In this document: one piece after another, positions 29,965 through 56,351 of the stretch
How positions within the stretch are numbered: position 1 is the first letter of the stretch
Layout of the letters: each line of letters starts with the position of its first letter
Program-made: the position numbers and the translations under genes
Assembly (NCBI GenBank): GCA_963734885.1
Contig: CAVTIJ010000007.1
Span: 123,620 to 187,619 of the forward strand
Direction: 5' to 3'
Length of the DNA stretch: 64,000 nucleotides
Source: an uncultured Bacteroidales bacterium
GTDB lineage: Bacteria; Bacteroidota; Bacteroidia; Bacteroidales; VadinHA17
Notes under the pieces: generated by a model
Database searches by the model: none
Seen by the model: only the letters and a program-made list of their open reading frames with translations
What the model was told of the DNA's origin: nothing

Positions 29965-31024
29965 ATGACATTGTCAGATTTGGGATATAACGGGAATATG
30001 ATGATCAGCCTGCAGAAACAGGCTTTACAGTAGGACGAGTAATGCAGGAGCACCGCGAACGTTATGTCGTCTCCGACGGTCAAAATGATTACAACTGTGA
30101 AGTAACAGGGAACCTTCGGTTTACAGCCAGTTCCAGAGCCGATTTTCCTGCCGTCGGCGACTGGGTAAAAATGATCGTTTATGATTCAGATATGGGATTA
30201 ATCCACCAGGTGCTTCCGCGTAAATCGGTCCTGGAAAGACAGGCAGTTGGTAATTATGGAGAGAAACAGATAATCTCTGCAAACATCGATGTAGCTCTCA
30301 TAATGCAATCAATTGATAACAACTTCAATGTTAACAGGTTGGAGCGATATCTTACAATATGTCATAATTCGAATCCATAGAGCCTGTCCTCGTTATAAGT
30401 AAAATTGATTTAGTTGATCAAAAAAAGATAGACTCAACCTTAAGAGTTCTTGAACTGAGGGAGAAAAAAGTAAAGACAATTTTAATGAGCAATACTTCAA
30501 AGGAAGGGCTCGAAGGGATTCTGACATTGTTGCAGAAAGGCAGAAGCTATTGCATTATTGGCTCCTCAGGTGTTGGAAAATCCACGCTGATCAATAACTT
30601 GTTGAAAAAAAATGTCTTAAAGACAGGAGAGATCAGTGAAAGTACTAATAAGGGCAGGCACATAACAAGCCGCAGGGAGCTTTTTGTACTGGATAACGGA
30701 GCAATAATTATCGACACTCCGGGCATGAAGGAATTAGGCATTGTTGAGAATGAGGAAGGGGTAAGGACCACATTTGAAGAAATTTACAATCTTAGCCTGA
30801 AATGTAAGTTCCCTGACTGTACGCATACAGTGGAATCGGGTTGTGCTGTAGCAGAAGCTTTGGACAAAGGTGTAATTGACAGTGAAACGCTTGAGAATTT
30901 CAGAAAAATTCAAAGGGAGCAAAAGCATTTTCAGACAACTATAGCTGAAAAAAGAAAAAAAGAAAGAGAATTTGGAAAAATGGCAAAAGAAATAATGAAA
31001 GAAAAGAGAAAAACTAAGTTCTGA
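29965..31024 (+). pseudogene. rsgA: ribosome small-subunit-dependent GTPase A, two frameshifts
   Basis: MTLSDLGYN in frame 1, then GFTVGRVMQEHRERYVV... (30042 ORF), then ESIEPVLVISKIDLV...GSSGVGKSTLIN...DTPG...CKFPDCTHxxExGCAV zinc motif (30485 ORF). Frame changes occur near 29989-29994 and 30362-30372. Confidence 0.75.
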
Positions 31025-31027
31025 CGC

Positions 31028-31915
31028 ATGGAACATCATCACTCTCATAATAGCTCGATCAAATTAAGTAATGCTTTCAAATTAGGCGTTTCCATAAATA
31101 TTATTTTCATTATTTTCGAAGGTCTGACCGGACTAATTTCCAATTCTACCGCGTTAATTGCTGATGCAGGGCATAATCTGAGCGATGTACTGACACTGAT
31201 ACTCTCATGGGTTGCAATCAACCTCTCCCAGAGGCAGCCAACCCTTAAATTTACATACGGATTCCGGCGCTCAACGATTTTAGCAGCTCTGTTAAATACC
31301 ATCCTGTTGCTTGTTGCAGTCGGGTTTATTATTTATGAAACAGTAGTTCGACTCAACCATCCTGCTAATATAGATGCCAACATCATGGTGATTGTTGCTT
31401 CGATCGGAATCGGAGTAAATGGATTTACAGCATGGCTATTTGTTAAAGATAAAAATCGCGACCTCAATATCAGAAGCGCATTTGTGCACTTTCTCTCTGA
31501 TGCTTTGATATCGCTTGGAGTGGTTGTAGCAGGATTGTTAGTGAAATTTACAGGCATTCAATGGTTTGATTCAGCAGTTTCATTTATAATTATTGCGGTC
31601 ATATTATATGGATCCTATAAGCTTCTTATTGGTTCACTGAATCTTGCTCTTGATGCAGTACCCGATAACATAAAAATTGAATCAGTCCTCGAATATCTTG
31701 AGAGCCTTCCGGAGGTGACAGGTGTTCACGATTTGCATATATGGTCGCTGGGTACAACAAATGCCGCGCTCACTGTTCATCTTAAAACATGCGTTCAGAC
31801 AAATGTAAATTTCATAACAACAATCCAGCATGAGCTGAATGAACAGTTTGATATTGAACATTCAACCATCCAGGTTGAATACGGAAGCGATGAAGATTGC
31901 GGCAATAAATTTTAG
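31028..31915 (+). CDS. cation diffusion facilitator family transporter (CzcD-like)
   Basis: N-terminal His cluster, ALIADAGHNLSDV, HFLSDALIS, and a C-terminal cytoplasmic domain. Confidence 0.9.
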   Translation: MEHHHSHNSSIKLSNAFKLGVSINIIFIIFEGLTGLISNSTALIADAGHNLSDVLTLILSWVAINLSQRQPTLKFTYGFRRSTILAALLNTILLLVAVGFIIYETVVRLNHPANIDANIMVIVASIGIGVNGFTAWLFVKDKNRDLNIRSAFVHFLSDALISLGVVVAGLLVKFTGIQWFDSAVSFIIIAVILYGSYKLLIGSLNLALDAVPDNIKIESVLEYLESLPEVTGVHDLHIWSLGTTNAALTVHLKTCVQTNVNFITTIQHELNEQFDIEHSTIQVEYGSDEDCGNKF

Positions 31916-31932
31916 TTAAATCCTTAGTTATC

Positions 31933-32480: not shown

Positions 32481-32486
32481 TTTCAA

Positions 32487-32541: not shown

Positions 32542-33013
32542 ATGCAAACCGAAACTCTTGAAGTCAAAGCAGCCATTCAAATTATTAAACCTTCAAACGA
32601 GGTATTTGAAGCTATTGTTGATCCCGAAAAAATGTCCAATTATTTTATAGCTCACGGAAGCGGCAGAATGGAAACAGGGAAAGACATAACCTGGAAATTC
32701 CCTGAATTTGATCAACTTGCGCCCATAAAAGTTGACAAGATTGAGAAGAATAAATTCATTTCCTTCTATTGGGAGAATGATGGCGTCGAATACCCTTGTG
32801 GAGATGATTCTTACTCCAAGCGGTGACAGTTCAACCGTTGTAAATATTACTGAAAAAAGCGGGAAAAACGATGAAGCCGGTATCAAATGGCTTAAGGGCA
32901 ATACGGAAGGATGGGCTAATTTTCTGGCTTGCCTGAAAGCATATCTTGAATATGGTATAAACCTAAGAAAAGGCGCTTTCGATTTTATGGCAGACTCAAA
33001 AATGAAAGTCTGA
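32542..33013 (+). pseudogene. SRPBCC / AHSA1 (activator of Hsp90 ATPase homolog 1-like) domain protein, one frameshift
   Basis: ORFs 32542..32826 and 32732..33013 join as ...FYWENDGVEY / LVEMILTPSGDSSTVVNITE...EGWANFLACLKAYLEYG. The frame changes near the CCC run at about 32790-32800. Confidence 0.6.
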
Positions 33014-33329: not shown

Positions 33330-35702
33330 ATGATGTTATTGCGCTCAATATTAATCGTGGTTGCTCTCTCTTTTTCTGAACTTGTCTTTGCCCAATCTTA
33401 CAACCCTGTCCTTAATGAACTGACGGTAAGGTTTGATTCCTTAGCTGAAAATGCAGTTCCTGAAATTGCCTATATCCAAACAAGCAAGGATATTTATGAA
33501 ACAGGAGAAGATTTATGGTTTAAAGTATATCTTCTTAATTCCCAAGACCTGATCCCATCATTATTGAGTAAAACTCTTTACCTGCAGCTCTTAAATGAAA
33601 ATACAGGAAAAATATTCTGGCAGGAAAAATATGAAATTCAAAATGGATTTGCAAATGGAAAAGTTTATCTCAAGAGCACGATGCCTGAAGGAAATTATTT
33701 TCTGGCAGCCTATACACCAAATTCATTCTTTAATGATTCATCGGAATTTAAAGTTCTGAAATTGGTTAAGGTAGTTAATGACATAGAGGCTGTAAAGGGA
33801 ACACCAAAAGATGAATCAGCAAGTAAACAGAAATTTCAGGAAACAAATAAGATTCAATTCACAACCTATCCGGAAGGAGGAAATCTCGTCTCGGGCATAA
33901 GAAGCAAATTGGCTTTTAAAGCAGTCAACATCAATGGAGAACCAATTGATATTTCTGGAATATTGTTTGAAGACTCAACTCCTATTGTGAAATTTAAAAG
34001 TTCACATTTCGGGATGGGCTTCCTGAATTTTATCCCTCATCATGAAAAAAATTACCGGATAAAATTGTCAACACCTCCTCTGGATAGCGCTTTCATTATT
34101 CCGGAGATTTATGAAACTGGTATGGTATTGCACCTTGCCGGAAGAGACAATGATACTCTCTCTTTTAAGATATATCAAAACTCTGTATCAGAAGAGAAGG
34201 GTGTATATCTCAGAGTTCAATCCCGCGGAATTATTTATGGAATGACCTCTGTGCGACTTAGCCATGATATAAAAATAAAAGTACCTCTTTCAGGACTTCC
34301 ACAGGGAATTGCAGAGGTCACTCTTTTTAATAGTAATCTGATGCCGGTAGCTGAAAGACTTATTTATATTAATCAGAATCATAAACTTAATATTACCTCT
34401 GAATTATCCAATGGAATTTATCCAACCCGTGGAAAGGTTGACCTGAAAATATCGGTAAAAGATGAAAACGGGGACCCGGTAATTGCTAACCTTGGTGTAA
34501 GTGCTTTTGATAAAATCTATCAGGATCCCCGGGACTCGAATAATATTCTGACTCACTACTATCTCTCGACTCAGATAAAAGGCAGAATTTACAACCCGTC
34601 ATATTACTTTAATGTCAATAACAAAGACCGACTGGAAGAATTAGATCTTCTTATGCTCACACAAGGATGGAGAAAATATATCTGGAATGAGGAGAATCTT
34701 AAAAAATCTGTGAACCAGAGAGAAAAGGTGATTTTTGATGGTATAAATGGAGAGGTGTTTTTCACAGGCAGAAAAAAGAAAATCCCAAAAGAACAGACTT
34801 TCGTTATGGCTTTTTCTCCTGATAAGGATAGTACAAATTTACTGGTAACTGCAGATTCAGTCGGGAGGTTTGAGGTTCCGCCACATGAATTCAAAAGATG
34901 TGAAAATGACTATGTCTACCTGAAACCTTTTGGAAAGCATAGTTACACTTTTCTTAATATAAATGATGCGCTGGCGCAACCAGAACACAGTCTTGTTATT
35001 AGAGTGGAGGATCCGTATGAAGTCATAAAGAGTATATCCAATTCTAAAGAAATTATTTACCCTTTTCCAGGTATTTTTTACAATAACGAAGATTCAATTG
35101 AATCTGGTTTTAAAATTTCAGGTACAATCAAAATAAAAGAAATTACAATAAAAGGTCAAAGAGCAAAGATTAACAGGGGAAAATACATGGGTTTACTTGA
35201 TAGCGTAGCAAATTCTCTCGCAAAACCAACCGATTGGATATGTTACTGGCATGTTTTAAATTGTCCAAATCACGATGAGCATTATCCGGGAAGCCATAAA
35301 CCTTATCAAGATGAAGAGTGTATTAAGATATACTGCTACAATACACCTGCTGTGATGTACAAAAAAATAAGATACCATGCTCCGGTTATGCCAAGATTTA
35401 CTGAAGAACAGCTATTAAAAATTAATAATCTCTTGAGGATTAAAGCTTATTATGGAGATCGTGATTTTTACAAACCTGATTATGATAAGATGATATTGGA
35501 GACAAATATTCCCGATTTCCGTAATACTCTTCTCTGGGAACCATCAGTAATTACAGATAAAAATGGGAAAGCAACATTGAGCTTCTTCTGTTCTGATATT
35601 AATACTGATTTCGTTGGAAGAATTGAAGGAGTTGGCGGAGATGGACTAATTGGCACAGGATTTTTTAAATTTACAGTTAGAAAACTAAAGTTCAATCCTT
35701 AA
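33330..35702 (+). CDS. large secreted protein with MG2 (alpha-2-macroglobulin-like) N-terminal domain
   Basis: Signal peptide. TSKDIYETGEDLWFKVYLL resembles the MG2 motif. 790 aa, with its stop 2 nt before the TonB gene. Confidence 0.45.
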   Translation: MMLLRSILIVVALSFSELVFAQSYNPVLNELTVRFDSLAENAVPEIAYIQTSKDIYETGEDLWFKVYLLNSQDLIPSLLSKTLYLQLLNENTGKIFWQEKYEIQNGFANGKVYLKSTMPEGNYFLAAYTPNSFFNDSSEFKVLKLVKVVNDIEAVKGTPKDESASKQKFQETNKIQFTTYPEGGNLVSGIRSKLAFKAVNINGEPIDISGILFEDSTPIVKFKSSHFGMGFLNFIPHHEKNYRIKLSTPPLDSAFIIPEIYETGMVLHLAGRDNDTLSFKIYQNSVSEEKGVYLRVQSRGIIYGMTSVRLSHDIKIKVPLSGLPQGIAEVTLFNSNLMPVAERLIYINQNHKLNITSELSNGIYPTRGKVDLKISVKDENGDPVIANLGVSAFDKIYQDPRDSNNILTHYYLSTQIKGRIYNPSYYFNVNNKDRLEELDLLMLTQGWRKYIWNEENLKKSVNQREKVIFDGINGEVFFTGRKKKIPKEQTFVMAFSPDKDSTNLLVTADSVGRFEVPPHEFKRCENDYVYLKPFGKHSYTFLNINDALAQPEHSLVIRVEDPYEVIKSISNSKEIIYPFPGIFYNNEDSIESGFKISGTIKIKEITIKGQRAKINRGKYMGLLDSVANSLAKPTDWICYWHVLNCPNHDEHYPGSHKPYQDEECIKIYCYNTPAVMYKKIRYHAPVMPRFTEEQLLKINNLLRIKAYYGDRDFYKPDYDKMILETNIPDFRNTLLWEPSVITDKNGKATLSFFCSDINTDFVGRIEGVGGDGLIGTGFFKFTVRKLKFNP

Positions 35703-35704
35703 AT

Positions 35705-36576: not shown

Positions 36577-38142
36577 ATGACTTTCAGACTTAAATATCTT
36601 TTTTTAGCCTCGATTCTTTTATGGCATTCCAATAATGTTCTTCTTTCTCAATCAGTAAATTTCATCGAAGGCAAAGTACTTAGCTCTGCCTCACCTGATC
36701 CTGTTCCTTTTGCCACCATTCACCTCAGGGATAATCAGTTAGGTGTCTATGCCAATGCCGACGGCGATTTCAAGATAATGCGAAGCACCGAATTTCAATC
36801 CGACAGTGTAATTGTAACGTGTATTGGCTATAAAAGGTATTCAGTAGCATACAGGAACCTAAGCGATTCAACAGTTAACAGGATCTATCTGAATCCCATT
36901 ATCTATAATCTCGCTCAGGTTAATGTGATATCATCGGCCAGAAAACTGGGCTCCATTGCAATAGTAAGAAGAGCTATAAGAAATATCCCGGTCAATTATC
37001 CCGCCAGGCCCTTTAACTACATCTCATATTACCGCGACTATCAAAAGGAAGGTTCAAAATATTATAACCTGAATGAAGCAATAATCCAGACACTTGATAA
37101 TGGGTTCAGTTCAAAATCAACCTCCAATAAATACCGTTTGCTCGATTTCAGGAAAAACATGGAATTCCCCACGATGAATATTACTCCTTTCTATGAGTCA
37201 GGTTCAACCGTGGATGGTGTTACTTCCATTAAAATAATCCCTGATGCTAAATTAGGCGATCAATATGGAAATGAGCTTTTTGTTCTGATGGTTCATGATC
37301 CTGTCAGGAACTTCGATACACGATCTTTTTCTTTTATCGAAACATTCTCAAAGGATTTTCTGCTGAATCATAATTTTGCCCCACCCGTGCCTGTTTATGA
37401 TAATAATCAATTGCTTTTCAAGATCATCTTCAATGGCAAATCGCGGATAATCGGAAATCTGCTGCGGGTATCGGGTGCGATATATATTCAAGCCAGGACC
37501 TATTCAATTCATAAGATCGAATATTCATGTTCTTATCTGAATAAAGGATCTGGAAGCGGAGACATGTTTAATGTGGATATAGAGTACGGTACCGAAAATT
37601 CGGTTGACTCGCTGATGTGTCTTAAATATATATCATTCAATAATTACTTTAAGGTAGAAAATGCTGATGATAACTCATATTTCAGGGTTCTGAGAGCCCA
37701 TTGGGAAACAAAACAATTCCTGAATCCGACTCTCATTGTTGATTTTAATAAGAATATTGATCCGGCATCAGCGATAAAGAAAGAAAATTACAGGATCAGG
37801 GTAGCTAAAAAGGATATAAAAATCAACTCTGTTCAGGCTGTTGGAAGCACATTGTTTATCAGAACAAAAGACAAGATTATTACAAATGAAAGAGATTCCT
37901 GTTGGTTTAATATTGAAAATGTAAAGGATTCTGAAGGGAATTTGATCAACCATCGGAAATCACTGGAACTCTATCAGTATCGGGAGCTTTTTGTCCAGGA
38001 ATACAATAAGCCAATTACTTTTAAGGATTCCTGTTATATAAAATATCTGCCGCTTGATAAAAACTGTAAGTCCTCATACTCAGGGAATGAGAAATATTGG
38101 ATGAATACACCTGCAATTGTAAAAATAGTTCAGACTCAATGA
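36577..38142 (+). CDS. carboxypeptidase-like regulatory domain-containing protein
   Basis: Signal peptide. IEGKVLSSASPDPVPFATIHLRDNQLGVYANADGDFKI is CarboxypepD_reg-like. Confidence 0.55.
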   Translation: MTFRLKYLFLASILLWHSNNVLLSQSVNFIEGKVLSSASPDPVPFATIHLRDNQLGVYANADGDFKIMRSTEFQSDSVIVTCIGYKRYSVAYRNLSDSTVNRIYLNPIIYNLAQVNVISSARKLGSIAIVRRAIRNIPVNYPARPFNYISYYRDYQKEGSKYYNLNEAIIQTLDNGFSSKSTSNKYRLLDFRKNMEFPTMNITPFYESGSTVDGVTSIKIIPDAKLGDQYGNELFVLMVHDPVRNFDTRSFSFIETFSKDFLLNHNFAPPVPVYDNNQLLFKIIFNGKSRIIGNLLRVSGAIYIQARTYSIHKIEYSCSYLNKGSGSGDMFNVDIEYGTENSVDSLMCLKYISFNNYFKVENADDNSYFRVLRAHWETKQFLNPTLIVDFNKNIDPASAIKKENYRIRVAKKDIKINSVQAVGSTLFIRTKDKIITNERDSCWFNIENVKDSEGNLINHRKSLELYQYRELFVQEYNKPITFKDSCYIKYLPLDKNCKSSYSGNEKYWMNTPAIVKIVQTQ

Positions 38143-38192
38143 GTAATTTTACATGATTCCTGATTAGGATAATACATTGAAACCTGATTATC

Positions 38193-39287
38193 ATGAAAAA
38201 TAGAATTCTTTACCTTCTTTTGTTACTTCTCACCGTAAGCTGTAGTAATCATCAATCGGCAAAATGGGATTTCAATTCATTTTATAAACCTGCAGAAAAT
38301 CCTGTTCTCAAAGGCGACTCTACATTTACATTTATCGATCCGATAAAAAAGACAGAAGTGAAATGGCAGAAGGCCGATGTTTTTAATCCAGCCGCTATTG
38401 TTAGAGATAACAAGGTCTGTATGTTTACAGGAGTGAAGATAATCCGGCAGCAATTCTTGGTGGAAGAACCTCCAGGATAGGTTTGGCATTACAGTGACGA
38501 TGGTATTCATTTTACAAAATATCCCGAACCGGTTTTATATCCCGACAGCAGCGAATTTATGAAATATGATTACCCGGGAGGATGTGAAGATCCGAGGATC
38601 GTACAGACTGAAGATAGCTTGTACGTACTGGCTTACACTTCCTGGAATTATAAAATTGCACGACTGAGCATCGCTGTTTCAAAAGACCTTATCCACTGGC
38701 AAAAGAAAGGTCCGGCTTTTGCCAAAGCATATGATGGAAAATTTCTTGATATCTGGTCAAAATCTGGTTCAATAATTACCAGAATGGATGGCAATAAGAT
38801 CGTTGCTGCTAAAATAAATGGGAAATACGGGATGTACTGGGGAGAAAATTTTGTCAATCTTGCCTGGTCCGATAATCTTACCGACTGGTATCCTACTTTG
38901 AATGAAAAAGGCGAGCTAAAACCTGTTATCAGTCCCAGAAAGAACAAATTCGACAGTCAGCTCACTGAATGCGGACCTCCCGCACTAATTAACGATGGAG
39001 GTATCGTTCTGTTCTACAATGGGAAAAATTCAGAAGGTGATGATGCTGATCCGGGTGTGCCAAAAGGAACATATTCTGTGGGTAAAGTAGTTTTTGATGT
39101 GAAAAATCCGGAAACGGTCATCTCACGGTCAGATACCTGTTTGCTCAGACCGACCTTACCGCATGAGATCTCGGGGCAGTATAAAGCTGGTACAACTTTT
39201 TCAGAGGCGCTGGTCTTTTTTCACGAAAAATGGTTTTTGTACTATGGTACTGCCGATTCATTCGTCGGAGTGGCAATATCGAAATAA
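38193..39287 (+). pseudogene. GH130 family glycosidase/phosphorylase (exported, lipoprotein signal), two frameshifts
   Basis: ...KADVFNPAAIVRDNKV.MF / (Y)R(S)EDNPAAILGGRTSRIGLA / YSDDGIHFTKYPEPVLYPD...YPGGCEDPRIV. Frame changes occur near 38424-38432 and 38487-38492. Confidence 0.7.
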
Positions 39288-39317
39288 AACTTTGCAGCGA
39301 GGTTGCCAAAAAAGATC

Positions 39318-39405
39318 TTTATAACCACAAAGAACACAAAGAAGGCACAAAGGACACAAAGCTTAAACACTATAATATAGACCTTTGTGCCCTTTGTGAA
39401 AAACC
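39318..39405. repeat. CACAAAG/CTTTGTG palindromic intergenic element, copy 6
   Basis: TTTATAACCACAAAGAACACAAAGAAGGCACAAAGGACACAAAG, then a loop, then CCTTTGTGCCCTTTGTGAAAAACC. Confidence 0.85.
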
Positions 39406-41167: not shown

Positions 41168-42670
41168 ATGACAGCTATAAAACGCCTGGCCGGTCAGACC
41201 GCAATCTATGGAATCCCAAGTGTTCTGGGCCGTATTCTAAGTTATCTTTTGGTTCCACTTTATACAAAAGTGTTTCTTCCCGGGGAATATGGTACGGTAA
41301 ATGTTTTCTACTCCTATGCTTCGTTCCTTATGGTAGTTGTGACATATGGAATGGAAACAGCATTTTTCAGATTCAATGAACATGAAAATGACAGAGAAAG
41401 TGTTTTCAGCACCGGGATGATCTCCCTTACTTTTTCCTCAATTATTTTTCTGATCCTTGTTTCATTCTATTCAGGTCATATTGCCAGGTTGATTGACTAC
41501 CCAAATCATAAGGAATATGTAATCTGGTTCGCATGGATACTTGCGCTGGATGCACTTGCAGCTATTCCATTTGCCTATCTCAGGGCCGAACACAGACCGG
41601 CCCGCTTTGCTACCATAAAAATGACCGGTATAGGACTGAACATCGGACTAAATCTGTTTTTCCTTTTGTTGTGTCCTTTTGTTCTGAGCCATTTTCATTC
41701 AAGCCTTCCGGGACGTTTTGTGGCAATAATCTTCAGGCCCCACTGGGGAATAGAATATATTTTTATTTCAAACCTTATTGCCAGCGCTGTAACGCTATTA
41801 ATGCTATTCCCTCAGATTTCAAGGGTAAGATGGAAGATACATCCTGACCTGTGGAAGAGGATGCTTTTGTATGCCTTCCCACTCCTTTTTGCAGGAATGG
41901 CAGGAATTATTAACGAAACCTTCGACAGGCTTTTATTACGTTATCTTCTTCCCAAAGATATTGCTTCCTACCAGGTCGGAATTTATGCGGCCTGTTATAA
42001 GATCTCTATCCTGATGACCATCTTCATCCAGGCTTACAGATATGCTGCAGAGCCCTTCTTTTTTGCTCAGGCTAAGGAAAAAGACGCAAAGGAGGTCTAC
42101 GCAAGAATAATGGACTATTTCATTATTGTAGTATCGCTGATTTTCCTGGTAACAATGCTTTACCTTAATGATTTTGTTATGCCAATCCTGGTAGGGAAAA
42201 AATATTGGGAAGGAAAAGGTGTGATACCCATATTAATGATGGCTAATCTTTTTCTCGGCGTTTATTATAACCTTTCAATCTGGTATAAGCTCACCGGCAA
42301 AACTTCCTGGGGAGCATGGCTCTCGCTCTTCGGCGCTATTATTACACTTATTCTCAACTTCTGGTGGATACCTCTCAGCTCTGATCATATGATTTATGGC
42401 TATTATGGATCAGCATGGGCAACTTTCATTTGTTATGGTTCAATGATGATACTTTCATATATTATCGGACAAAAATATTTTCCTGTAAATTATAACCTCG
42501 GAAAATTCACAGGATATTTGGGGCTATCTGTGTTGTTATATGCTGTAAGCACAATGATAAATCCGGAGCTGAAAGTTATAAGTATTGGTTTTCATACAAT
42601 CCTTGTGCTGATCTTTCTTTCAATAGTCTTTCTTGTTGAGAAACCAAAACTTTCGGCAATTTTCAAGTAA
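41168..42670 (+). CDS. polysaccharide biosynthesis / oligosaccharide flippase (MOP superfamily)
   Basis: MTAIKRLAGQTAIYGIPSVLGRILSYLLVPLYT start and about 14 TM. The start is moved from 41126, which lies in the hairpin. Confidence 0.75.
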   Translation: MTAIKRLAGQTAIYGIPSVLGRILSYLLVPLYTKVFLPGEYGTVNVFYSYASFLMVVVTYGMETAFFRFNEHENDRESVFSTGMISLTFSSIIFLILVSFYSGHIARLIDYPNHKEYVIWFAWILALDALAAIPFAYLRAEHRPARFATIKMTGIGLNIGLNLFFLLLCPFVLSHFHSSLPGRFVAIIFRPHWGIEYIFISNLIASAVTLLMLFPQISRVRWKIHPDLWKRMLLYAFPLLFAGMAGIINETFDRLLLRYLLPKDIASYQVGIYAACYKISILMTIFIQAYRYAAEPFFFAQAKEKDAKEVYARIMDYFIIVVSLIFLVTMLYLNDFVMPILVGKKYWEGKGVIPILMMANLFLGVYYNLSIWYKLTGKTSWGAWLSLFGAIITLILNFWWIPLSSDHMIYGYYGSAWATFICYGSMMILSYIIGQKYFPVNYNLGKFTGYLGLSVLLYAVSTMINPELKVISIGFHTILVLIFLSIVFLVEKPKLSAIFK

Positions 42671-43875: not shown

Positions 43876-46026
43876 ATGAAAAGAACAACTTTAATTATTT
43901 TAATTCTAACCTGCATCAGTAAGATCATCGTCGGGCAAAATGGAATATCAGACTCAACAAAAAATTTTAGTCTCGATGAAATAATTGTAACGGCTAACAG
44001 AGTTCCGATTCTTTTAAAAAACAATCCCGGTTCTATTTCGCTGGTAACCCCTGAAGTTCTTTCGTTAATGCCAAAATCAGCCGGCGCTGAAGAAGCACTT
44101 CGGTTAATTCCCGGGGTACGTATCGATAATCAACATGATGGAGAACGTATCCATATGTCAATTCGCGGTCAGGGTATTTTGACTGAAAGAGGATTACGCG
44201 GGATCGGCGTTTTGATTGATGGTATACCTGTAAATGATCCTTCTGGTTTTGCACCGGACCTCTATGATGTGGATTGGGCAACAGTTAACAAAATTGAGGT
44301 TTTAAGAGGTCCCTCAGCGAGTTTATACGGAGGTGGCGGTGCCGGAGGTGTTTTATCGATAACTACAAACGATGGTGGCACAAAATCGTTAGGAGGTGAA
44401 CTAAATCAAACCTTTGGTTCAAATGGCTATTCAAAATCGCTGGTTCAATTGGACGGGTCTCATGATAATCTGAACTACAGGGTAAGTTATTCACGCACCG
44501 GTGGGGATGGATACCGCGATCATCAGGCGTTTCGCGGTAATAAGATTTATGAGAAAATCAATTTCTATCCTTCCAAAAAATTGTCAGTTACACAGATCAT
44601 TTCCCATATTGACTACTTCCAGCAAAACCCTGAAGGTTTAAATATTAGTCAGTTTGATAACCTCCGACAGGCAAACCCCGACGCAAATCCATTCAATGAA
44701 TATCAGAAAACTAATCGTACAACAATCGGTTTTCACTCCAAATATAGTTTCAGTGAAATTCACGATGTGGAAGTCACTTCATATCTGCGGTCATGGACAT
44801 ACAAGGAAACCAGTAATAAGAATGCAGAATACAGGAATATTACAAATCCAGGCCTCAGCTTTCAATACAACCTGCATTTAAGTACCGGAAAAGTTAAAAA
44901 TGATATCAGTTTTGGCGCCGATCTCAAGTGGCAGAATATTGGCGTTTACAAATTACAAAGCGCTGCAAATCCGCAAAGAAAGGAGAGTCTGAGCGAAGAC
45001 AACATAGAAACAGATTCATTGCTCGCTAATCAGACAATTTCGCAAAATAGCCTTGGGGCATTTGCTCTGTATAAACTCAGACTCGGAAAATTAAGTGCAG
45101 TCGGAAGTTTCAGGTATGAGACAATGAATAATGAACTTACAAATAAAATGTTTGGCGCCGATTCAGCCAAAACAGTTAAAAATTTTGAAAAAGTATCTGC
45201 CCGTATTGGTCTAAATTACTCTTTGATGAAAGCGATTAATGTATTTATCGACTGGAGTCATGGTTTTCTGCCGCCCTCTACCGAAGAACTGGCAAGCAAT
45301 CCGACAGGTTATAGCGGATTCAATACTCATCTCATTCCTGCAACAGCTGATTGCGGGGAAATAGGAATCCGCGGATTTTACCAGAACAAATTATCTTATG
45401 AATTGACCGGTTTTGTTATGAATACTGAGAATGATTTCTTCCGTTTTAAACAATCGGGAAGAGGAAATCAGGAGGTATTTTATGGTAATGCAGGAAACAG
45501 CAAAAGGTATGGCATTGAAACTTTCGTCTCTTACCAGATACTCAAAAACCTTAGTCTGCAGGCAGCTTATACTTTTGCTGACTATAAATATACATCATCG
45601 GTGATAGATCCGGTTTACACCGATCCGGCTTATGTCCTTACCGCTCCTCCGGCAAAAGGACAATGGTTGCCGAATTCTCCCAGGAATCAGTTCTACGCTG
45701 AAATCGTTTATACAATCCATAAAAAGATCAAATTAAGTTTTGCCTCTGAACTTCAGTCAAAGTGGGCTATTTATACCGATCCAAAAGCATATAATGGCGA
45801 ACTTGATCCGGCAATATATCAGAACTGGCAGAAAGGATTTAATCTATATCATGCCAGAATATCTTACGAACTGAGTATTGGAAAAGTGAATGGGGAATGC
45901 AGCTTCTTTATCCGTAATCTCACAGGTGCCAGATACATGGCATTCACCGAACCCGATCCGGATGGTAATGCCTATCACCCTGGACCAACAAGAGAATTTT
46001 TCGGAAATATTAAAATAAGATTTTGA
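43876..46026 (+). CDS. TonB-dependent receptor
   Basis: Signal peptide. Plug motifs (IIVTANR, EALRLIPGV, IRG, DGIPVNDP) and a C-terminal ...FGNIKIRF. The start is at MKRTT. Confidence 0.85.
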   Translation: MKRTTLIILILTCISKIIVGQNGISDSTKNFSLDEIIVTANRVPILLKNNPGSISLVTPEVLSLMPKSAGAEEALRLIPGVRIDNQHDGERIHMSIRGQGILTERGLRGIGVLIDGIPVNDPSGFAPDLYDVDWATVNKIEVLRGPSASLYGGGGAGGVLSITTNDGGTKSLGGELNQTFGSNGYSKSLVQLDGSHDNLNYRVSYSRTGGDGYRDHQAFRGNKIYEKINFYPSKKLSVTQIISHIDYFQQNPEGLNISQFDNLRQANPDANPFNEYQKTNRTTIGFHSKYSFSEIHDVEVTSYLRSWTYKETSNKNAEYRNITNPGLSFQYNLHLSTGKVKNDISFGADLKWQNIGVYKLQSAANPQRKESLSEDNIETDSLLANQTISQNSLGAFALYKLRLGKLSAVGSFRYETMNNELTNKMFGADSAKTVKNFEKVSARIGLNYSLMKAINVFIDWSHGFLPPSTEELASNPTGYSGFNTHLIPATADCGEIGIRGFYQNKLSYELTGFVMNTENDFFRFKQSGRGNQEVFYGNAGNSKRYGIETFVSYQILKNLSLQAAYTFADYKYTSSVIDPVYTDPAYVLTAPPAKGQWLPNSPRNQFYAEIVYTIHKKIKLSFASELQSKWAIYTDPKAYNGELDPAIYQNWQKGFNLYHARISYELSIGKVNGECSFFIRNLTGARYMAFTEPDPDGNAYHPGPTREFFGNIKIRF

Positions 46027-47801: not shown

Positions 47802-48453
47802 ATGATAAGAGTAAAGATTTGTTGCATTAGCAGCGAGGATGAAGCCAGGATAGCAATAGAATCGGGGGCTTCAGCAATAGGCCTGGTTGCATGGATGCCA
47901 AGCGGCCCGGGACCTATTGCAGATAAGTTGATACAGGCAAATTGCAAAATCAGTCCCTCCTCCTGTTGCGACTTTCATGCTTACAAGTGAGACTTCGGTT
48001 AAGAAAATAATTGAGCATCACAACCGGACAAATACCAGCACAATTCAGATCGTGGATAAATTATCAGCTGGTACTTATGCTGAGTTGAAATCTGCATTAC
48101 CCGATACTAAAATTGTTCAGGTAATTCATGTAATCGATGAAAGCTCGGTTGAAGAGGCTTTTGGTATCTCAGCAATGGTGGATGCAATCCTTCTCGACAG
48201 TGGAAACCCGAAACTAAAAATAAAAGAACTCGGAGGAACCGGGAGAGTTCATAACTGGAAATTAAGCAGAAGGATAGTAGAGATCGCAAAATGCCCTGTA
48301 TTTCTTGCCGGTGGTCTTAATCCTGAAAATGTAAAGCAAGCAATTGATGAGGTTCATCCCTTTGCAATGGATGTTTGCAGCGGAGTGAGAACCGATGGTC
48401 GTCTGGATAGAAAGAAGGTAGAATTATTTATAAGAAATGTTACCGAAATTTAG
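47802..48453 (+). pseudogene. trpF: phosphoribosylanthranilate isomerase, one frameshift
   Basis: MIRVKICCISSEDEARIAIESGASAIGLV... / IAKSVPPPVATFMLTSE...GGTGRVHNW...FLAGGLNPENV...DVCSGVR. The frame changes at about 47936-47942. No other trp genes are nearby. Confidence 0.7.
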
Positions 48454-48459
48454 AAAAGC

Positions 48460-48600
48460 TTTTTAATCACGAGCACACAAAGACCACCTCCGCGGAAGCT
48501 TCGGTGGTTAAAAGGCACAAGGGCAAAAGTTAAGACCTCACTTTTAAAACCTTTGTTCCTTTGTGTTTTTCCTTTGTGACCTTTGTGGTTAAAGGATTTA
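48460..48600. repeat. CACAAAG/CTTTGTG palindromic intergenic element, copy 9
   Basis: Degenerate left arm with an internal hairpin ACCACC...GGTGGT (48483-48508). Right arm has CTTTGT(T/G) x4 + GTTAAAGGATTTAAA. Confidence 0.8.
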
Positions 48601-48678: not shown

Positions 48679-49473
48679 ATGATTAAAAAAATCTTCTTTT
48701 ATTCAATCGTGATGCTTCTGGTTCTCACCGGAACAAAATTGATGGCACAGAATCAGAAAATGGCAGGCACATTAAAAAGCCGGCCTGTTCCTGTAGCAGG
48801 TTTTAAGCACAGTGATATTGGAAGTCCGTCAATTGCAGGAACTGTGAAAATCGCCGGAAATGGATTTGACATTATTGGTGGCGGCGCAGATATCTGGGGA
48901 GTAAAAGATGAATTCAATTTCGTATATATTCAGCGTTCGGGAGATTTTGATATTATGACCCGAATAGAGAGCCTGATGGCTGCTAATCTTTACACAAAAG
49001 CAGGGATAATGGCCCGGGAAGATCTCACTCCTGATTGCAGACATATATTTTTCCAGGTATTCTCAGATAACAATCCACGAAATAATAATAACGGAGGATA
49101 TGAATTTCAGTATCGTCAGGTTAAGGCTGGGGAAATGAAAGCTATTTATCCTAAAAATTCAAAGGGTACTCCGGAATTTCCCGTTAACTATCCTGATACC
49201 TGGGTAAGGCTTCAGCGTACAGGTAATATTTTCACAGGTTATTATAGCTCCGATGGAAAAATCTGGAAAGAATATACGAAATATACTCTTGAACTTCCTT
49301 CAAAAATCTATCTTGGCCTGGCTGTTACTTCTCATAACACATCCCATTCAGCATCTGCAAAATTCAGAAATATTGAGCTGAACTTAACACTAGAAACAGA
49401 CATAATAATGAGGCATAGATCATGTTGCTATCTGGACAGACCATCTGGAGAGATTAAAGGAATTTTATGTTAA
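48679..49473 (+). CDS. secreted concanavalin A-like (DUF1349-like) protein; 3' end uncertain
   Basis: Signal peptide. GADIWGVKDEFNFVYIQRSGDFDI...YTKAGIMARED motif. The last ~22 codons overlap the start of a VOC pseudogene and may be read-through. Confidence 0.45.
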   Translation: MIKKIFFYSIVMLLVLTGTKLMAQNQKMAGTLKSRPVPVAGFKHSDIGSPSIAGTVKIAGNGFDIIGGGADIWGVKDEFNFVYIQRSGDFDIMTRIESLMAANLYTKAGIMAREDLTPDCRHIFFQVFSDNNPRNNNNGGYEFQYRQVKAGEMKAIYPKNSKGTPEFPVNYPDTWVRLQRTGNIFTGYYSSDGKIWKEYTKYTLELPSKIYLGLAVTSHNTSHSASAKFRNIELNLTLETDIIMRHRSCCYLDRPSGEIKGILC

Positions 49474-49789
49474 GTATTTCGATGGAAAATCAAATTCAAA
49501 ATACCTCAATAAGGAAACAGGTTTTGAGAGTTACTTCATCACTTTTCAGTCAGGCACAAGGCTTGAAGTGATGCAGAAACCTGGAATACCTGCAAATCTT
49601 AATGACCCGATTGCTCAATACCAGGGAATTATCCATCTGTCTTTTGGTGTTGATGACATGAAGAAGGTCGATGAAAAACTGGAGATGCTGAGAAATGACG
49701 GTTTCAGAATATTGAGAGGTCCGCGCAAAACAGGGGATGGATATTATGAATTCGAAACCCTCGATCCCGACAATAACAGGTTGAGGTAA
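49408..49789 (+). pseudogene. VOC/glyoxalase family protein, frameshift directly after start codon
   Basis: ATG at 49408 (MR), then the frame shifts to (G)IDHVAIWTDHLERLKEFYVKYF...IIHLSFGVDD...YYEFETLDPDNNRL. Confidence 0.6.
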
Positions 49790-49817
49790 TGTCAACTTTT
49801 AAAGACTAGATCTTATT

Positions 49818-49913
49818 CCTTTGTGTACCTTCGTGTTAACCTTTGTGTTCCTTTGTGGTAAAAAAATCCATTAACCACAAAGTAACAAAGTAAAAAACAA
49901 AGTAACATAAAGG
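49818..49913. repeat. palindromic element, copy 10 ('inside-out': CTTTGTG arm, tail, then ACAAAG arm)
   Basis: CTTTGTG/CTTCGTG x4 + GGT, then AAAAAAATCCATTAACCACAAAG, then (T/A)AACAAAG x3. Confidence 0.8.
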
Positions 49914-49936
49914 AAAATACAATATATGAATGTGCT

Positions 49937-50415
49937 ATGATAAGGGAAATGCTTCAAACCGATAGTGAAAGAGTCCTGGAGATCTACAGGATGGGGCTTG
50001 AAACAAGAAATGCTTCCTTTGAAACCATTGTTCCCTCCTGGCCGGAATGGGATTCAAAACATCTTCATCATTCTCGATTTGTTTTTGAAGAGTTAGGGAT
50101 AGTGAACGGCTGGGTTGCGTTATCGCCGTTTTCAGTCAGGGAAGTTTATAAAGGGGTTGCGGAGGTCAGTATCTATGTAGCTGATAACTTCCGAGGAAAA
50201 AATACAGGATCAAAACTCATGGAAAGAGCAAAAAACTCGTTATAGAAAGGAATCTGGACTTTGTTTCCAGTGTGTTTCCTGAAAATGAAGCGATCTTAAA
50301 ACTGCATTTAAAATTCGGCTTCAGAGTCATTGGAAAAAGGGAAAAGATAGCAAAACTTGATGGTGTATGGAGGGACACAATTTTGCTGGAACGTAGAAGC
50401 TCCAAAATGTTTTAA
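49937..50415 (+). pseudogene. GNAT N-acetyltransferase (phosphinothricin acetyltransferase-like), in-frame TAG plus frameshift
   Basis: ...VADNFRGKNTGSKLMERAKNSL * KGIWTL / VSSVFPENEAILKLHLKFGFRVIGKREKIAKLDGVWRDTILLERR. TAG at 50243-50245 and a 1-nt loss near 50261-50264. Confidence 0.7.
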
Positions 50416-50446
50416 TCTCTGTGTAAGAGCAAAAATTCTTGATATT

Positions 50447-50952
50447 ATGAAAGAAATAGCGGCTATAATACTTGAAAATGATAAAGGTGAATTTTTACTT
50501 TATCTGCGTGACAATAAACCGGGTATACCCTTCCCCAATCACTGGGATCTCATTGGCGGTCATGTTGAAGAAGGCGAAACCCCGAAGAGGCTCTTGTCCG
50601 TGAAGTGAAAGAAGAACTGGATATCGATCTGAAGGAATACGCTTTTTATAGAAAGTATGAATGCCTGACAGGAGATGCTTATGAAAATATAAAATATATC
50701 TATACCGGCAGGATTAAACTTCCTATCGAAAAAGTAACCTTGTTGGAGGGAGTCCGTCCTCAATATTTTACAAGAGAAGAAATTCCACATGTAAAATTTG
50801 CAAACATCCTGAAATCAATCGTAATGGATTATATTAATGAACCCGACAGAATCAGGCAGAATCAAGTGCATCTTGATTATACACTGCCTTCTTTGTTAAA
50901 ATATTTTGGTGAACCTTTGTGTCTTGGTGTCTTGGTGGCAATTATTCGTTAA
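50447..50952 (+). pseudogene. NUDIX hydrolase, one frameshift in a C4 run
   Basis: GGHVEEGETP / EEALVREVKEELDI Nudix box, split at 50580-50583. The last ~15 codons are encoded by repeat copy 11. Confidence 0.7.
50887..50945. repeat. palindromic element, copy 11 (degenerate, right-arm type)
   Basis: CTTCTTTGT..., CCTTTGTGTCTTGGTGTCTTGGTGG. Overlaps the 3' end of the NUDIX ORF. Confidence 0.45.
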
Positions 50953-50963
50953 TACGTTTTATC

Positions 50964-52737
50964 TTGAAAAGTTATCGAAAAACCGACCAATACCTTCTTC
51001 CTAAAGTGAAGCCTTTGAACTCAAAGGGTAGTTATGATATCTCCCCGACTTATAAACTCGATGATGAATAAAATTGCTTCAGGATTCGAATCATTGGCTC
51101 TTGCTAATATCCAAACATAAGATTATAATTATCGATGGTTATATAGGTGTTTTTTATGATCAATTCCAAGAAGAAACTGGAAGAACATCTGAAAAATCTT
51201 GGCAAAAAAACTTCATGGAAATCAACAAGTGATTTTTAAAATCTTCCTGATATATTATCGGAGATTGTTTCACCATTTACCGGCGGCGATGATCCTGTTT
51301 TCGGGTACCGGACGACTATGAATCTCGAGGATTTTTTCGATTTAAATGCTTTGAAAAAAAGCACAATTGATAATGAATCTGATATAAATATTCTGATAGG
51401 TCCCGGCGCATCACTTGCTGGTTGGAAAGGGTTATTAGTTTATATAGATATCCCGAAAAATGAAATACAATTCAGATCACAGGGCCGCGAAGCATCACCA
51501 ATCTTGGTGCTGTCATCATCCTGCTGATCCAAAGGAGATGTATAAGCGATTTTATTTTGTTGACTGGATTGTACTGAATAAACACAAACAAAATATCTTC
51601 CCCGGCATAGATATAATTGTAGATGCACAAAATCCTGCAAATCCGTCATGGATGACGGGAGATACGTTTGAGAAGGTCCTTATCAGAAATGTGTCAGACT
51701 TCATTCAGAGTAAGACCGTGGTTTGAGCCTGGCGTTTGGGGAGGGACCTGGATAAAAGACCATATTGGAGGACTAAACCCGATGTTCCTAATTATGCATG
51801 GTCATTCGAATTAATTGTCCCGAAAATGGCCTCCTTTTTGAAAGCTCCGGAAAACTTTTAGAAGTCTCATTTGACTTTCTGATGTACCAGGAAGCAAAAA
51901 ATATTCTGGGTGATTGTTTCGAACGATTTGGAACTGAATTCCCGATAAGATTCGATTTCCTTGATACTTTCGATGGAGGAAATCTTTCGGTACAATGTCA
52001 TCCACGACCAGATTACATTAAAAAGCATTTTGGAGAAAGTTTCACCCAGGAAGAAACCTACTACATACTTGATACTAAAGATAACGCTGTTGTGTATCTT
52101 GGATTTCAGGACAATATAGATCCGACAGAATTCAGAAATGTTCTTGAAGAAAGCCATGCAAAATAAAGCAATCCGGTTCATATTGAGAAATATGTACAGA
52201 GACACCGGGCTTCAAAACATGACCTGTTTCTGATACCTTATGGTACCATTCATGGATCGGGTAAAAACAATCTTGTTCTTGAAATAAGTTCCACTCCATA
52301 TATATTCACTTTCAAAATGTATGACTGGTGCCGTCTGGATCTCGATGGAAAGCCTCGTCCGCTGAATATAAACAGAGGAATGGAAAATTTGTATTTCGAC
52401 CGGAAAGGCTCACATGTAAAGAAAGAACTTAAATCTGCTCCGATTCTCATCGGAGAGGGCAAGGATTGGCAGGTTTATCATTTACCGACTCACGAAACTC
52501 ACCTGTATGATGTCCATAGGTTGAAATTTCAGAAATTCTATTGAAGTTAAAACTGAAAACAAGTGTCATGTTTTGAGCCTGGTTGAAGGGAGTAGTATTA
52601 TTGTCGAAACAGGAAATGGCAAATCTCACCGATTCAACTACGCGGAAACATTTGTGATCCCTGCCGCTGCCGGGAGTTACAGAATAATTAATGAATCGGC
52701 TGATGTGGCAATGGTCGTAAAGGCATTTGTTAAATAA
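50964..52737 (+). pseudogene. class I mannose-6-phosphate isomerase (long form), heavily disrupted
   Basis: Fragments in all three frames: ...[17 protein letters not shown]..., ...[22 protein letters not shown]..., ...[25 protein letters not shown]..., ...[16 protein letters not shown].... At least 6 frame changes plus an in-frame TAA at 52164-52166. The 5' boundary is approximate. Confidence 0.6.
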
Positions 52738-52772
52738 CATCACGCTCCACTGGAACGAGATATTGAATTAAT

Positions 52773-52965
52773 GGAACCCCTCCGGGGTTCTTTAAATCTT
52801 TCCTTGTATATTTATTCTGGTATTTGTGGAACACCTCCGGTGTTCAAAATCACGTTTTCAGAACTTAGGCGGAAAGACAAACGATGCAAACTATAGAACC
52901 GCAGAGCGGTTCCATAAATAATAGCAGGAAACCCGATAGTGAACATAGAACCTCGGAGAGGTTCC
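52773..52965. repeat. four covarying hairpins GGAAC-NNN-TCY-N'N'N'-GTTC (two per orientation)
   Basis: 52773-52790 GGAACCCCTCCGGGGTTC; 52828-52845 GGAACACCTCCGGTGTTC; 52896-52913 and 52948-52965 are reverse complements of GGAACCGCTCTGCGGTTC and GGAACCTCTCCGAGGTTC. Confidence 0.8.
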
Positions 52966-52986
52966 ATTATTAAAAATCTTAACATC

Positions 52987-55900
52987 ATGAAACGATTCTT
53001 CTCTTTCATATTCGTCATTTCTCTCATTATAGGCAATTTAAATGCCCAATCATTCCTCTCTGACGATGACTACCTGATCAACGGTTATGCAAGAAAAATC
53101 TCCGGTCTGGATTATGACTATCAATCATGCATACCCGGTTTGCGCGAAAGTATGCTGGTCAGGGCACTGAATGGCAAGGATTTTATGGAATGGGAAACTG
53201 ATCCGGTTCCGGTGCATATCACTAAAAAATATGCGACGTTTATCTGGGTTGCGGCTCTCGGATCAAGTCCGGGAAAATCAGAGATGGTTTTGAATCTGAA
53301 CGGCGATCAGAATTACACTTTTTACACCGATGGACAGCGACATTGGGAAGTAAAAAACCCCGACGGTTCCTCTTTAACTTTTAATTCAATTATGGTTGAC
53401 CAGAATGGTGACAATCATGGATATATGATATTAAGAATTCCAGGTTCAAAGCTGATTTCAGGTAAGTCCTTTAAAGTTAAAAATAACCGGGGGTCAGAAT
53501 AATCTTACATCATGGTATATGACATTTAAAAAAGAGGTCAGAACCGGCGTAACTATGAATGCCTTCCCGGCAATATTGAAAAAGGGATCTGCACGTCTTC
53601 AACTTATAGAACTTGGAGTTTTTTATTTCGGAAAGGAAGGTGATGCTAAAATATATGCAGATGGCAGATTTCTTGAAAACGCCGCCCTGAAATTCGGTTA
53701 TAATTCAATAAACGTTGGATTACAACCCGTCACTGAAGCCACCCCTATTGAACTGAAAGTTGTAGCATGGTGACATTACAATGCGAAAAAGCGTTGTCCT
53801 CGATCCGGTAAGAAAATGGGATATAAAATTGATTCAGCATACTCATACCGACATAGGTTACACCAGATCGCAAACAGATATCCTTGCAGAACATCTGAGA
53901 TACATTGATTATGCTCTTGATTATTGTGATGCAACGGATAATTATCCCGACAATGCTAAGTTCCGATGGACCTGCGAAGCGTCATGGCCGGTAGATGAAT
54001 ATCTGAAATGCAGACCTGCAGGCCAGATTGAACGTCTGATTAAAAGGATAAAGGAAGGCCGAATTGAAGTTACCGGCATGTATTTCAATTTTGATGAATT
54101 ACCCGATGAAAAAATCCTTGCTGCATCTCTTGCAGCATTGGGCAGGATCAGGGAAAAAGGGATACCTGTTTCCCTGGCAATGCAGGATGACGTAAACGGC
54201 ATTGGCTGGTGCCTTAATGATTATTTCAATCAGGTGGGTGTGAAATATCTGAACATGGGCACCCATGGACATCGTGCATTGATCTGCTTTGATAAACCAA
54301 CTATGTTCTGGTGGGAATCGCCGTCGGGAAAACGACTTCTTACTTTCAGAGCCGAACATTATATGACCGGGAACACCGTTCTGGAAATGCAATCGGGAGA
54401 TATCGACCGTTTTAAAAGAAACCTGATGAACTATCTTATCAGTCTCGATGCCAAAAAATATCCATATGATGAAATGGCAATTCAGCATTCAGGGTACCTG
54501 ACAGATAATTCACCTCCATCAACAATTGCCAGCGATCTTGTAAAACAATGGAATGAGATGTTTGAATGGCCAAGATTGTCAACCTCCACTGCTGAGACAT
54601 TTTTCAGCGATATGGAAAGAGATCACGGAGGTGAATTCCCTGTAATAAGAGGTGCCTGGCCCGATTGGTGGACAGATGGATTTGGCGCCTCAGCCCGGGA
54701 AACAGGAACAACACGCCTCGCATCTTCTTTGCTTACTGCAAATGAAGCCGGACTAACAATGGCTTCCATAGCAGGAGTTAAACTACCAGATGATATAAAA
54801 TATAGTATCAGTCTTACAGATAATGCATTATTGTTTTATACCGAACATACGATGGGTTATTCTGAGAGCGTAAGGGAACCACTCAGTCAGCCCACAATGG
54901 AGCAGCGCGCCCTCAAAGAATCGTACGCATGGGAAGCAAACAGGAGGGCAGCTTCAATTGGTGAAGAAGCAATGGGATTGCTGCAAAGCAGATTTAACCG
55001 CGAACCACAACCATCATTAATTGTATTTAATACACTTAATTGGAAACGATCTGGTCTCGCAAAAGTATATATTGACCATCAGATTATTCCCAGGGGCAAA
55101 ATTGCCGGAATATATGATCACGATGGCAACAGACTACCCGTTCAGGCAATTGAAAGTCGCTCGGATGTCACAGAATGGGCTATATGGTTAAATGATGTGC
55201 CTGCTTTCGGTTATAAAAAATATACTATAAAAGCCATCGACGAACAGGCATCAGAAAATCTTTATGGTAAAACGTTAGAGAACAAATGGTACAAAATAGT
55301 TACAGATCCATTGAAAGGGACAATAACATCATGGTACGATAAAGACCTTGGTACGGAACTTCTCGATCAGGGGAATAAATATAGAATGGGGGAATTCATC
55401 CTTGAGCAGCTTGGAAACAGGTCGCAGATGGAAAGCCACAGGCTTGATGATTTCAAACGATCTCCGTTAGATACTGTATGGTTCGACTCAATGACAAGAG
55501 GAGAAATATGGAACAGTATAAGATTTTATGGTGAATCGTCAACTTCAGAAAAACCGCAGAGGATTCATGTTTGAAATAAGGCTTTTTAATACTGACAAGC
55601 GTCTCGACCTCGCTTGTTCAATAGTAAAAAAGGACATTGTCTCTCCTGAGAGTTTTTATATAGCTTTCCCGTTCATGGTAAAGGACGGAAAACATTTTAC
55701 CGAAGTGCAGGGAGGAGTAATCGAAGCAGGAAAGGATCAGATAAAAGGATCATCAAACGACTGGTATACAGTTCAGGATTTCACTTCAGTCAAAAATGAT
55801 GTGTCGCAAATTATAATCGGCTGTCCAGAGATGCCTCTTATGCAGCTTGGCGCAATAAATACCGGCAGATATATTGCAGGTGCCTTGCCCAGAGTACAAA

Positions 55901-56351
55901 CCTGTTTTCATGGCCAATGAATAATTATTGGGTGACGAACTTCAATGCTGATCAGCGCGGAGGACATTCCTGGACATATTATCTGACAAGTTCCAGTGAT
56001 AACTCAACAGGTTTTGCAACGGAATTCGGCTGGGGATGCCGTATTCCCTATTTAACCAGAATCCTTCCGGGATCGGGAAAAGGCGACAATAACTGGGAGG
56101 GTTCCTTTATCAGCGGATGGCCTTCAAATATTCTACTGGTAAGCGCAGAACCCGAGACTGACGGAAAATCATGCATTATTCATTTGCGGGAAATAAACGG
56201 GAAATCGGCTTCAATTGATCTTATTAACGGGGTGAACAACAAAAGTCTGAAAGCAGTTGAAGTTGATGTTACCGGAAAAACACTCGAAAATCAGTCCTTG
56301 AAGATCAATCCCTTTGAATCAAAGTTTTTCAGGATTATTTTTGCTCCATGA
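52987..56351 (+). pseudogene. GH38 alpha-mannosidase with N-terminal accessory domain, four frameshifts
   Basis: Signal peptide at MKRFF. IKLIQHTHTDIGYT is the GH38 catalytic motif, and WPDWWTDG and MNNYWVTNF are also present. Frame changes occur near 53480-53484 (A run), 53765-53770, 55549-55553 (A run) and 55887-55895. Confidence 0.7.

Follow-up and report, generated by a model that had tools for sequence, protein, structure and literature searches.

The window analysed here is a stretch of 64 000 nucleotides from an uncultured Bacteroidales bacterium (contig CAVTIJ010000007.1 of assembly GCA_963734885.1), in which genes disrupted by small lesions are interleaved with long intact ones (Table 1). 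Its source genome (G000) consists of nine contigs of 4.3 Mb in total with an estimated completeness of 95%, and this profile of few contigs and high completeness suggests a long-read or hybrid MAG. To map the breaks, the window was divided into stop-to-stop fragments, and these were aligned to intact orthologues in congeneric genomes (G007, G010, G004, G001 and G008), with nucleotide alignments added for the placement of lesions. Approximately 20 lesions, comprising 1–2-base indels and in-frame stops, were located between 29.9 and 56.4 kb; 13 of these fall within 50.2–53.8 kb.

Table 1. Disrupted and intact features of the window (window coordinates; +1, inserted base; -1, deleted base).
Feature	Position	Strand	Observation
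GPH-type transporter	15964..17548	-	one +1 at 16835-16860; 488-aa G010 orthologue aligned 1-480 over two frames
331-aa gene	20174..21158	-	one +1 at 20298-20311, by comparison with G007 orthologue
rsgA	30024..31024	+	single -1 at ~30366-30376; both pieces match Pfam RsgA_GTPase
SRPBCC/AHSA1-like gene	32542..33010	+	+1 at ~32792
790-aa gene	33330..35702	+	intact; aligns to 7-795 of 795-aa G007 orthologue
521-aa gene with CarboxypepD_reg-like domain	36577..38142	+	intact
GH130 gene	38190..39287	+	-1 at 38423-38425, +1 at 38489-38491, spacing 66 nt
500-aa Polysacc_synt-family gene	41168..42670	+	intact
716-aa TonB-dependent receptor with Plug domain	43876..46026	+	intact
trpF	47802..48453	+	+1 at ~47933
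VOC/glyoxalase gene	49408..49789	+	one extra base between ATG at 49408 and codon 4
GNAT gene	49937..50415	+	in-frame TAG 50243-50245; one-base deletion after 50262
Dense patch of probable errors	50240..53770		~13 coding lesions; window-only indels in intergenic spacers (51066, 51099, 51168)
NUDIX gene	50444..50841	+	one-base deletion at 50580
Class I mannose-6-phosphate isomerase-like gene (PMI)	51264..52737	+	5-7 shifts; TAA at 52164-52166
GH38 alpha-mannosidase-like gene	52987..56351	+	+1 at ~53467, 53767 and 55556; -1 at 55889; orthologue 1122 aa

Disrupted and intact genes of the window

Comparison with sister genomes, as proposed in the initial annotation, showed that G007 and G010 both carry unbroken orthologues of the genes disrupted in the window. 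trpF, the VOC gene and the NUDIX gene are also intact in L076, a sister-species contig that has ~85% nucleotide identity to the window and a name of the kind that long-read assemblers give; a further intact VOC gene is present in L077. The numbers of shifts first assigned to the SRPBCC (one), GH130 (two), trpF (one), VOC (one), NUDIX (one) and GH38 (four) genes were borne out against the same-genus orthologues, as were the stop and single shift in the GNAT gene and the break placed at 16.85 kb in the GPH transporter. For rsgA, two shifts had been described and only one was found; the stop reported in PMI is present, and its shifts, previously put at six or more, were counted as five to seven. 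The 331-aa gene, which bears a single inserted base, was absent from the earlier list of broken genes.

In GH130, the 22 codons between the deletion and the insertion are correct in the shifted frame only, and in the VOC gene the extra base severs the start codon from the remainder of the gene. Three homopolymer runs had been named as indel sites, and none of them proved to be one: the A5 runs at 53480 and 55549 have the same length in two relatives, and the C4 at 50580 is itself the result of a missing A that would separate C from CCC.

The four long genes described at the outset as uninterrupted are so, with full-length alignment where a reference exists. Lesions are not distributed uniformly, as with ~20 in 26.4 kb the probability that a given 7.6 kb would carry none is ~0.001. 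It had been argued from these genes that uniform error would not spare the larger ones; the non-uniformity stands, but not its use as an argument against error, since genome-wide 80% of genes at least 1.5 kb long are intact, which gives a probability of ~0.42 for four out of four and makes their sparing unremarkable.

The dense patch and comparison with a sister species

PMI, so named from a match to PDB 1qwr (E 2.6e-11) and from source annotations, carries window-only indels of 1–2 nt at ~51484, 51507, 51666, 51780, 51817, 52173 and 52524. In the three-way alignment the window-only events amounted to 12 insertions and four deletions, each of 1–2 nt. Given a density of ~3.7 lesions per kb, far over the 0.2 per kb averaged across the genome, and a make-up of dispensable accessory genes, the NUDIX-PMI-GH38 block (50.2–56.4 kb) could be viewed as a mannoside-utilisation operon that is truly inactivated and decaying in the lineage, with the scattered breaks elsewhere being mostly errors. 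PMI and GH38 are fragmented in L076 as well, which speaks for such decay; their breaks in L076, however, sit at different sites from those in the window. In L076, 19 events were counted that are particular to it, at different sites and in different genes, and no frameshift was clearly common to the two sequences. At window positions ~51780 and ~52170 both assemblies are faulty only a few bases apart, which could reflect either a hot spot for sequence-specific error or a genuine change in the lineage.

The broken genes of the window show no relaxed constraint. With G007 as outgroup, unique amino acid changes in GH38 numbered 35 in the window versus 34 in L076, and those in PMI 16 versus 10; and amino acid change in both genes resembles that of their intact neighbours. 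Spontaneous indels in bacteria are about ten times rarer than substitutions, and the four to seven indels per gene, if real, should on this basis have brought dozens of extra substitutions, in contrast to the lack of excess lineage-specific change. These 1–2-nt lesions are also biased towards insertion, whereas bacterial pseudogenes are biased towards deletion, and equally dense patches elsewhere in the genome include obg, dnaE and mfd. Decay of this operon against a background of error is therefore unlikely. We consider it quite unlikely, too, that the 50.2–53.8 kb block is something other than pure error in a broader sense, with the NUDIX-PMI-GH38 operon either being lost or hypervariable among co-existing strains, and the consensus recording indel heterogeneity at the population level.

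The sole conspecific sequence found, L075 (936 nt, 99.6% identity; short-read run ERR11594406), spans 56012–56947 and has no indels by comparison with the window over this stretch, which is one without any window lesion, so that it speaks directly against none of the individual indels. Exact-protein look-ups with one intact neighbour and two truncated N-terminal fragments returned no matching record, and when homologues were sought for the VOC fragment and for a piece of PMI carrying X at the stop, no conspecific protein was returned, the best matches being 96% and 83% identical respectively.

Genome-wide extent, clustering and spectrum

A genome-wide broken fraction, corresponding to the pseudogene fraction called for in the initial annotation, was computed from 799 orthologous loci (890 kb), of which 101 (12.6%) were broken by 176 events. 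A uniform model predicted 152 broken genes (minimum 136 over 5000 simulations), and the odds of a gene being broken were 3.4-fold higher with a broken neighbour (p = 2.6e-5); lesions cluster across the genome regardless of gene function. The event rate was independent of distance to contig ends and the broken-gene fraction showed no significant difference between contigs (p = 0.39). The broken fraction was 9.9% for genes with identity of at least 75% versus 14.1% below this value (p = 0.09), so that better conserved genes were hit almost as frequently as the others; among the most conserved genes (identity of at least 85%) it was 6%, a figure that is ambiguous as errors themselves reduce the measured identity.

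Insertions of one base outnumbered deletions by 121 to 37 (p = 1e-11) and account for about three quarters of events. The association with homopolymers that had been offered as a sign of long-read error applies to the deletions only, 62% of which lie at runs of four or more (37% in the control; p = 0.003); it does not apply to the insertions (33% versus 37% in the control). Homopolymer-length spectra of the source genome and four relatives were similar, and so held no platform signature. With the same pipeline, the control G008, a 40-contig relative, had a single event in 122 kb and a broken fraction of roughly 1%, and the five-contig relative G004 had 33 in 375 kb, likewise in patches; the cross-control between these two is tiny as G008:C23 is not syntenic with G004:C1.

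Many purported bacterial pseudogenes have been argued to be functional (PMC11017572), and on this basis the frameshifted genes might be real and expressed through transcriptional or translational slippage. This is scarcely credible here, given that the events are mostly insertions at non-repetitive, non-slippery positions, that several genes combine four to seven events with stops, and that a dense patch would call for numerous independent sites of recoding.

Disruption of essential genes

Genes that the organism should be unable to lose are among those broken. ileS is split at 283419/283420 of contig C8, and no other copy of it scores above the cut-off for the family; cysS, yidC, dnaE, obg and pheS each occur at only one locus, which is spread over two or more frames (three for dnaE). 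mfd, pyrC and the genes for methylmalonyl-CoA mutase and pyruvate phosphate dikinase are broken as well.

That ~13% of sampled genes are broken could in principle point to real pseudogenisation throughout the genome, in the course of reductive evolution like that of bacteria recently restricted to a host. Mycobacterium leprae and Sodalis glossinidius are examples of such pseudogene-rich genomes and resemble the present one in having many frameshifted genes interspersed among intact ones. Here, however, the damage extends to indispensable single-copy genes and constraint is not relaxed; the indels, uniform in size, are biased towards insertion; open reading frames of at least 100 aa cover 0.88–0.92 of the genome, equal to its relatives; and the size of the genome is usual for its genus. 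Pseudogenisation on this scale is very improbable.

Discussion

The initial annotation had left open whether the disrupted genes reflect pseudogenisation, locally poor consensus or both. Our findings favour locally poor consensus over pseudogenisation: because single-copy genes that are essential have breaks of the same kind, because lesions cluster genome-wide whatever the function of the gene, and because constraint in the broken genes is not relaxed, comparative sequence analysis indicates that the frameshifts and two stops of the window are very probably errors in the assembly consensus rather than mutations carried by the organism. The genes concerned are best treated as intact.

Under this interpretation the consensus of the source genome would carry ~0.2 frame-breaking indels of 1–2 bases per coding kb, with single-base insertions at ordinary non-homopolymer positions making up three quarters and deletions favouring homopolymers one quarter. 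Clean stretches of several kb would alternate with blocks of two to four errors per kb, and the window would hold one such block (50.2–53.8 kb) together with scattered single events. This patchiness would likely stem from local low read support or from co-assembled strains, where the consensus was degraded or polishing was escaped. An inserted base might conceivably represent the alleles of two strains set next to each other.

Frameshifts arising from residual indels are documented for long-read assemblies and MAGs; the IDEEL test measures the fragmentation of gene calls that consensus indels cause in Nanopore or PacBio CLR data, and proovframe is one of the tools that correct it (PMC9262707; bioRxiv 10.1101/2021.08.23.457338). 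The lesions described here resemble these in being 1–2-base indels in well-conserved genes, including essential ones, with few substitutions, and in affecting the few-contig sequences (G000, G004 and L076) but not the 40-contig G008. They differ from the homopolymer deletions of classic Nanopore R9 data in being mostly insertions away from homopolymers, and a further difference is their strongly patchy distribution.

The breaks in the window would therefore be relevant to annotation and data quality only and not to biology, adding nothing new on rsgA or mannan utilisation. Roughly one in eight of the genes in the record of this genome would be mis-called. Until it is re-polished, the record would be an unreliable basis for calling genes, counting pseudogenes, reconstructing pathways and estimating completeness or contamination.

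Broken genes in the window

The 4.32 Mb assembly that contains the window (G000; 9 contigs; window at C7:123620–187619) has an estimated completeness of 95.35% and contamination of 3.1%, and the nearest genomes compared belong to different species within its genus and share about 65–79% nucleotide identity with it. The plus strand of 29–58 kb was divided into stop-to-stop fragments that were aligned to uninterrupted orthologues from congeners G007, G010, G004 and G001; further relatives were then compared over the whole window, and lesion positions were set by nucleotide alignments. Every gene in the table except that at 20174–21158 had been named as broken in the initial annotation, and all of these breaks were confirmed against intact congener orthologues; likewise, the four long ORFs named as uninterrupted are intact. 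Not all details held: rsgA has one shift rather than two, and in a three-way alignment two A5 runs proposed as indel sites (53480 and 55549) do not differ in length from those of the relatives, while a third proposed site, the C4 run at 50580, arises through loss of an A. Identity of the class I mannose-6-phosphate isomerase-like gene (PMI) rests on a match to PDB 1qwr (E 2.6e-11) and on source names.

Frame-breaking lesions in the window (window coordinates)
Gene	Strand	Lesion	Remark
GPH transporter		split at 16835–16860	
Gene at 20174–21158	minus	+1 at about 20300	absent from the initial annotation
rsgA		one split, −1, about 30366–30376	both fragments match Pfam family RsgA_GTPase
SRPBCC/AHSA1-like		one base inserted, about 32792	
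GH130		deletion 38423–38425; insertion 38489–38491	spacing 66 nt
trpF		one base inserted, about 47933	
VOC		one surplus base between ATG (49408) and codon 4	
GNAT		in-frame TAG 50243–50245; deletion after 50262	
NUDIX		deletion at 50580	
PMI-like		5–7 indels, each 1–2 nt; TAA 52164–52166	
GH38 (alpha-mannosidase-like)		insertions about 53467, 53767, 55556; deletion 55889	

Upstream of VOC, a DUF1349-like gene has an apparent 3' end (region 49374–49473) some 33 codons beyond the stop of its G007 orthologue and, as read, overlaps the VOC start. Two short repeat families, at about 39310–39405 (about 90 nt) and about 48455–48600 (about 150 nt), are repeated a dozen or more times, with 79–94% identity, on contigs C1, C2, C3 and C4, and have weaker matches in several congeners; both resemble intergenic elements of the REP or MITE type.

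Breakage across the genome and in control assemblies

Uninterrupted reference ORFs were drawn from 1.9 Mb of G004 and G008, also congeners, and used to score 799 distinct loci of G000, which together make up 890 kb or roughly one fifth of its genome. Breaks were found in 101 of the 799 (12.6%), with 176 events or 0.20 per kb over these 890 kb; gene breakage is thus not special to the interval 29965–56351. A uniform model predicted 152 broken genes (5000 simulations, minimum 136) against the 101 observed, the odds of breakage were 3.4-fold higher beside a broken neighbour (p = 2.6e-5), and the first 481 kb sampled held eight clusters of at least five events each. The argument that uniform error would not spare large genes proved non-discriminating: genome-wide, 80% of genes of at least 1.5 kb are intact, so that a run of four large genes without a break has P of about 0.42. 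Conserved genes are barely depleted among the broken ones (9.9% broken at ≥ 75% identity versus 14.1% below 75%, p = 0.09, 799 loci). The densest patch found, one of these eight clusters, has 22–23 events and lies in a gene for a 1859-amino-acid bacterial alpha-2-macroglobulin (C8:271610–277191); the adjoining 762-amino-acid gene has one or two only.

In a reverse control, in which the same pipeline took G000 ORFs as references, G008 (40 contigs) showed 1 event in 122 kb and G004 (5 contigs) 33 events in 375 kb, also patchy. Breakage therefore tracks assembly type and is not made by the method; by the same count G004 is not an error-free reference. G004, which is rated 100% complete, has frameshift patches of its own against intact G000 ORFs (C1, about 20.0–22.7 kb and about 446–456 kb).

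Indel spectrum and essential genes

Insertions outnumbered deletions among the G000 events (121 versus 37, p = 1e-11). Bacterial pseudogenes are deletion-biased. Deletions lay in runs of at least 4 in 62% of cases versus a control value of 37% (p = 0.003); no homopolymer association was found for insertions in the G000 sample. Insertion-rich raw reads are typical of PacBio-type sequencing (bioRxiv 10.1101/2021.08.23.457338).

The ileS gene is interrupted at C8:283419/283420, and no second copy in G000 passes the family cut-off; cysS, yidC, dnaE (three frames), obg, pheS, mfd, methylmalonyl-CoA mutase, pyrC and pyruvate phosphate dikinase are likewise broken. Joint loss of all these indispensable single-copy genes is incompatible with a living cell. 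At a second locus of class I aminoacyl-tRNA synthetase type (C2:352052–354308), five distinct open frames of 133–273 amino acids match the ileS model, so that a further essential-type gene is split into at least four fragments.

Comparison with a sister species

A sister-species contig located via the VOC fragment (L076; ENA ERZ25039463 contig_71910) has about 85% identity to the window. New indels are roughly tenfold rarer than new substitutions, so that 4–7 real indels per gene would imply dozens of extra substitutions. None such were found in PMI or GH38: with G007 as outgroup, unique amino-acid changes numbered 35 in the window versus 34 in L076 for GH38 and 16 versus 10 for PMI, a balance no different from that of intact neighbours. 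L076 carries 19 events of its own, which affect different genes and positions from those of the window; its copies of trpF, VOC and NUDIX are unbroken, and genes of 159, 222 and 240 amino acids are broken there and intact in the window. Of the frame-breaking indels in the three-way alignment, 16 were window-only and 11 L076-only, with none clearly common to both. Near 51780 and near 52170 the two assemblies falter within a few bases of each other, which suggests error-prone sequence. That the NUDIX–PMI–GH38 block also holds real lesions has a small residual probability.

A short conspecific contig (L075; Logan assembly, ERR11594406) covers 56012–56947 at 99.6% identity with four transitions and no indel; as this segment holds no window lesion, all that the contig demonstrates is the presence of strain variants in public data.

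The interval between VOC and NUDIX contains a GNAT gene in the window (49790–50445), G007 and G010 but none in L076 (4662–4781). Hairpins of the form GGAAC...GTTCC in the PMI–GH38 spacer (52756–52975) recur in L076 (7066–7255), two of them differing compensatorily between window and L076 (CCGC/GCGG against CCAC/GTGG; CCTC/GAGG against CCGC/GCGG); the whole spacer is missing in G007.

Origin of the breaks

No link of events to contig ends, repeats or homopolymer spectra was found. The patches probably reflect low support in places, or a consensus degraded, or polishing blocked, by co-assembled strains. Residual indels that fragment gene calls are well described in long-read assemblies and MAGs (PMC9262707; 10.1101/2021.08.23.457338), and the G000 breaks are of the same kind. 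The breaks, those in the window included, very probably arise from an indel-only error process with a bias to insertions, a patchy distribution and no regard to gene function, and are not a biological feature.
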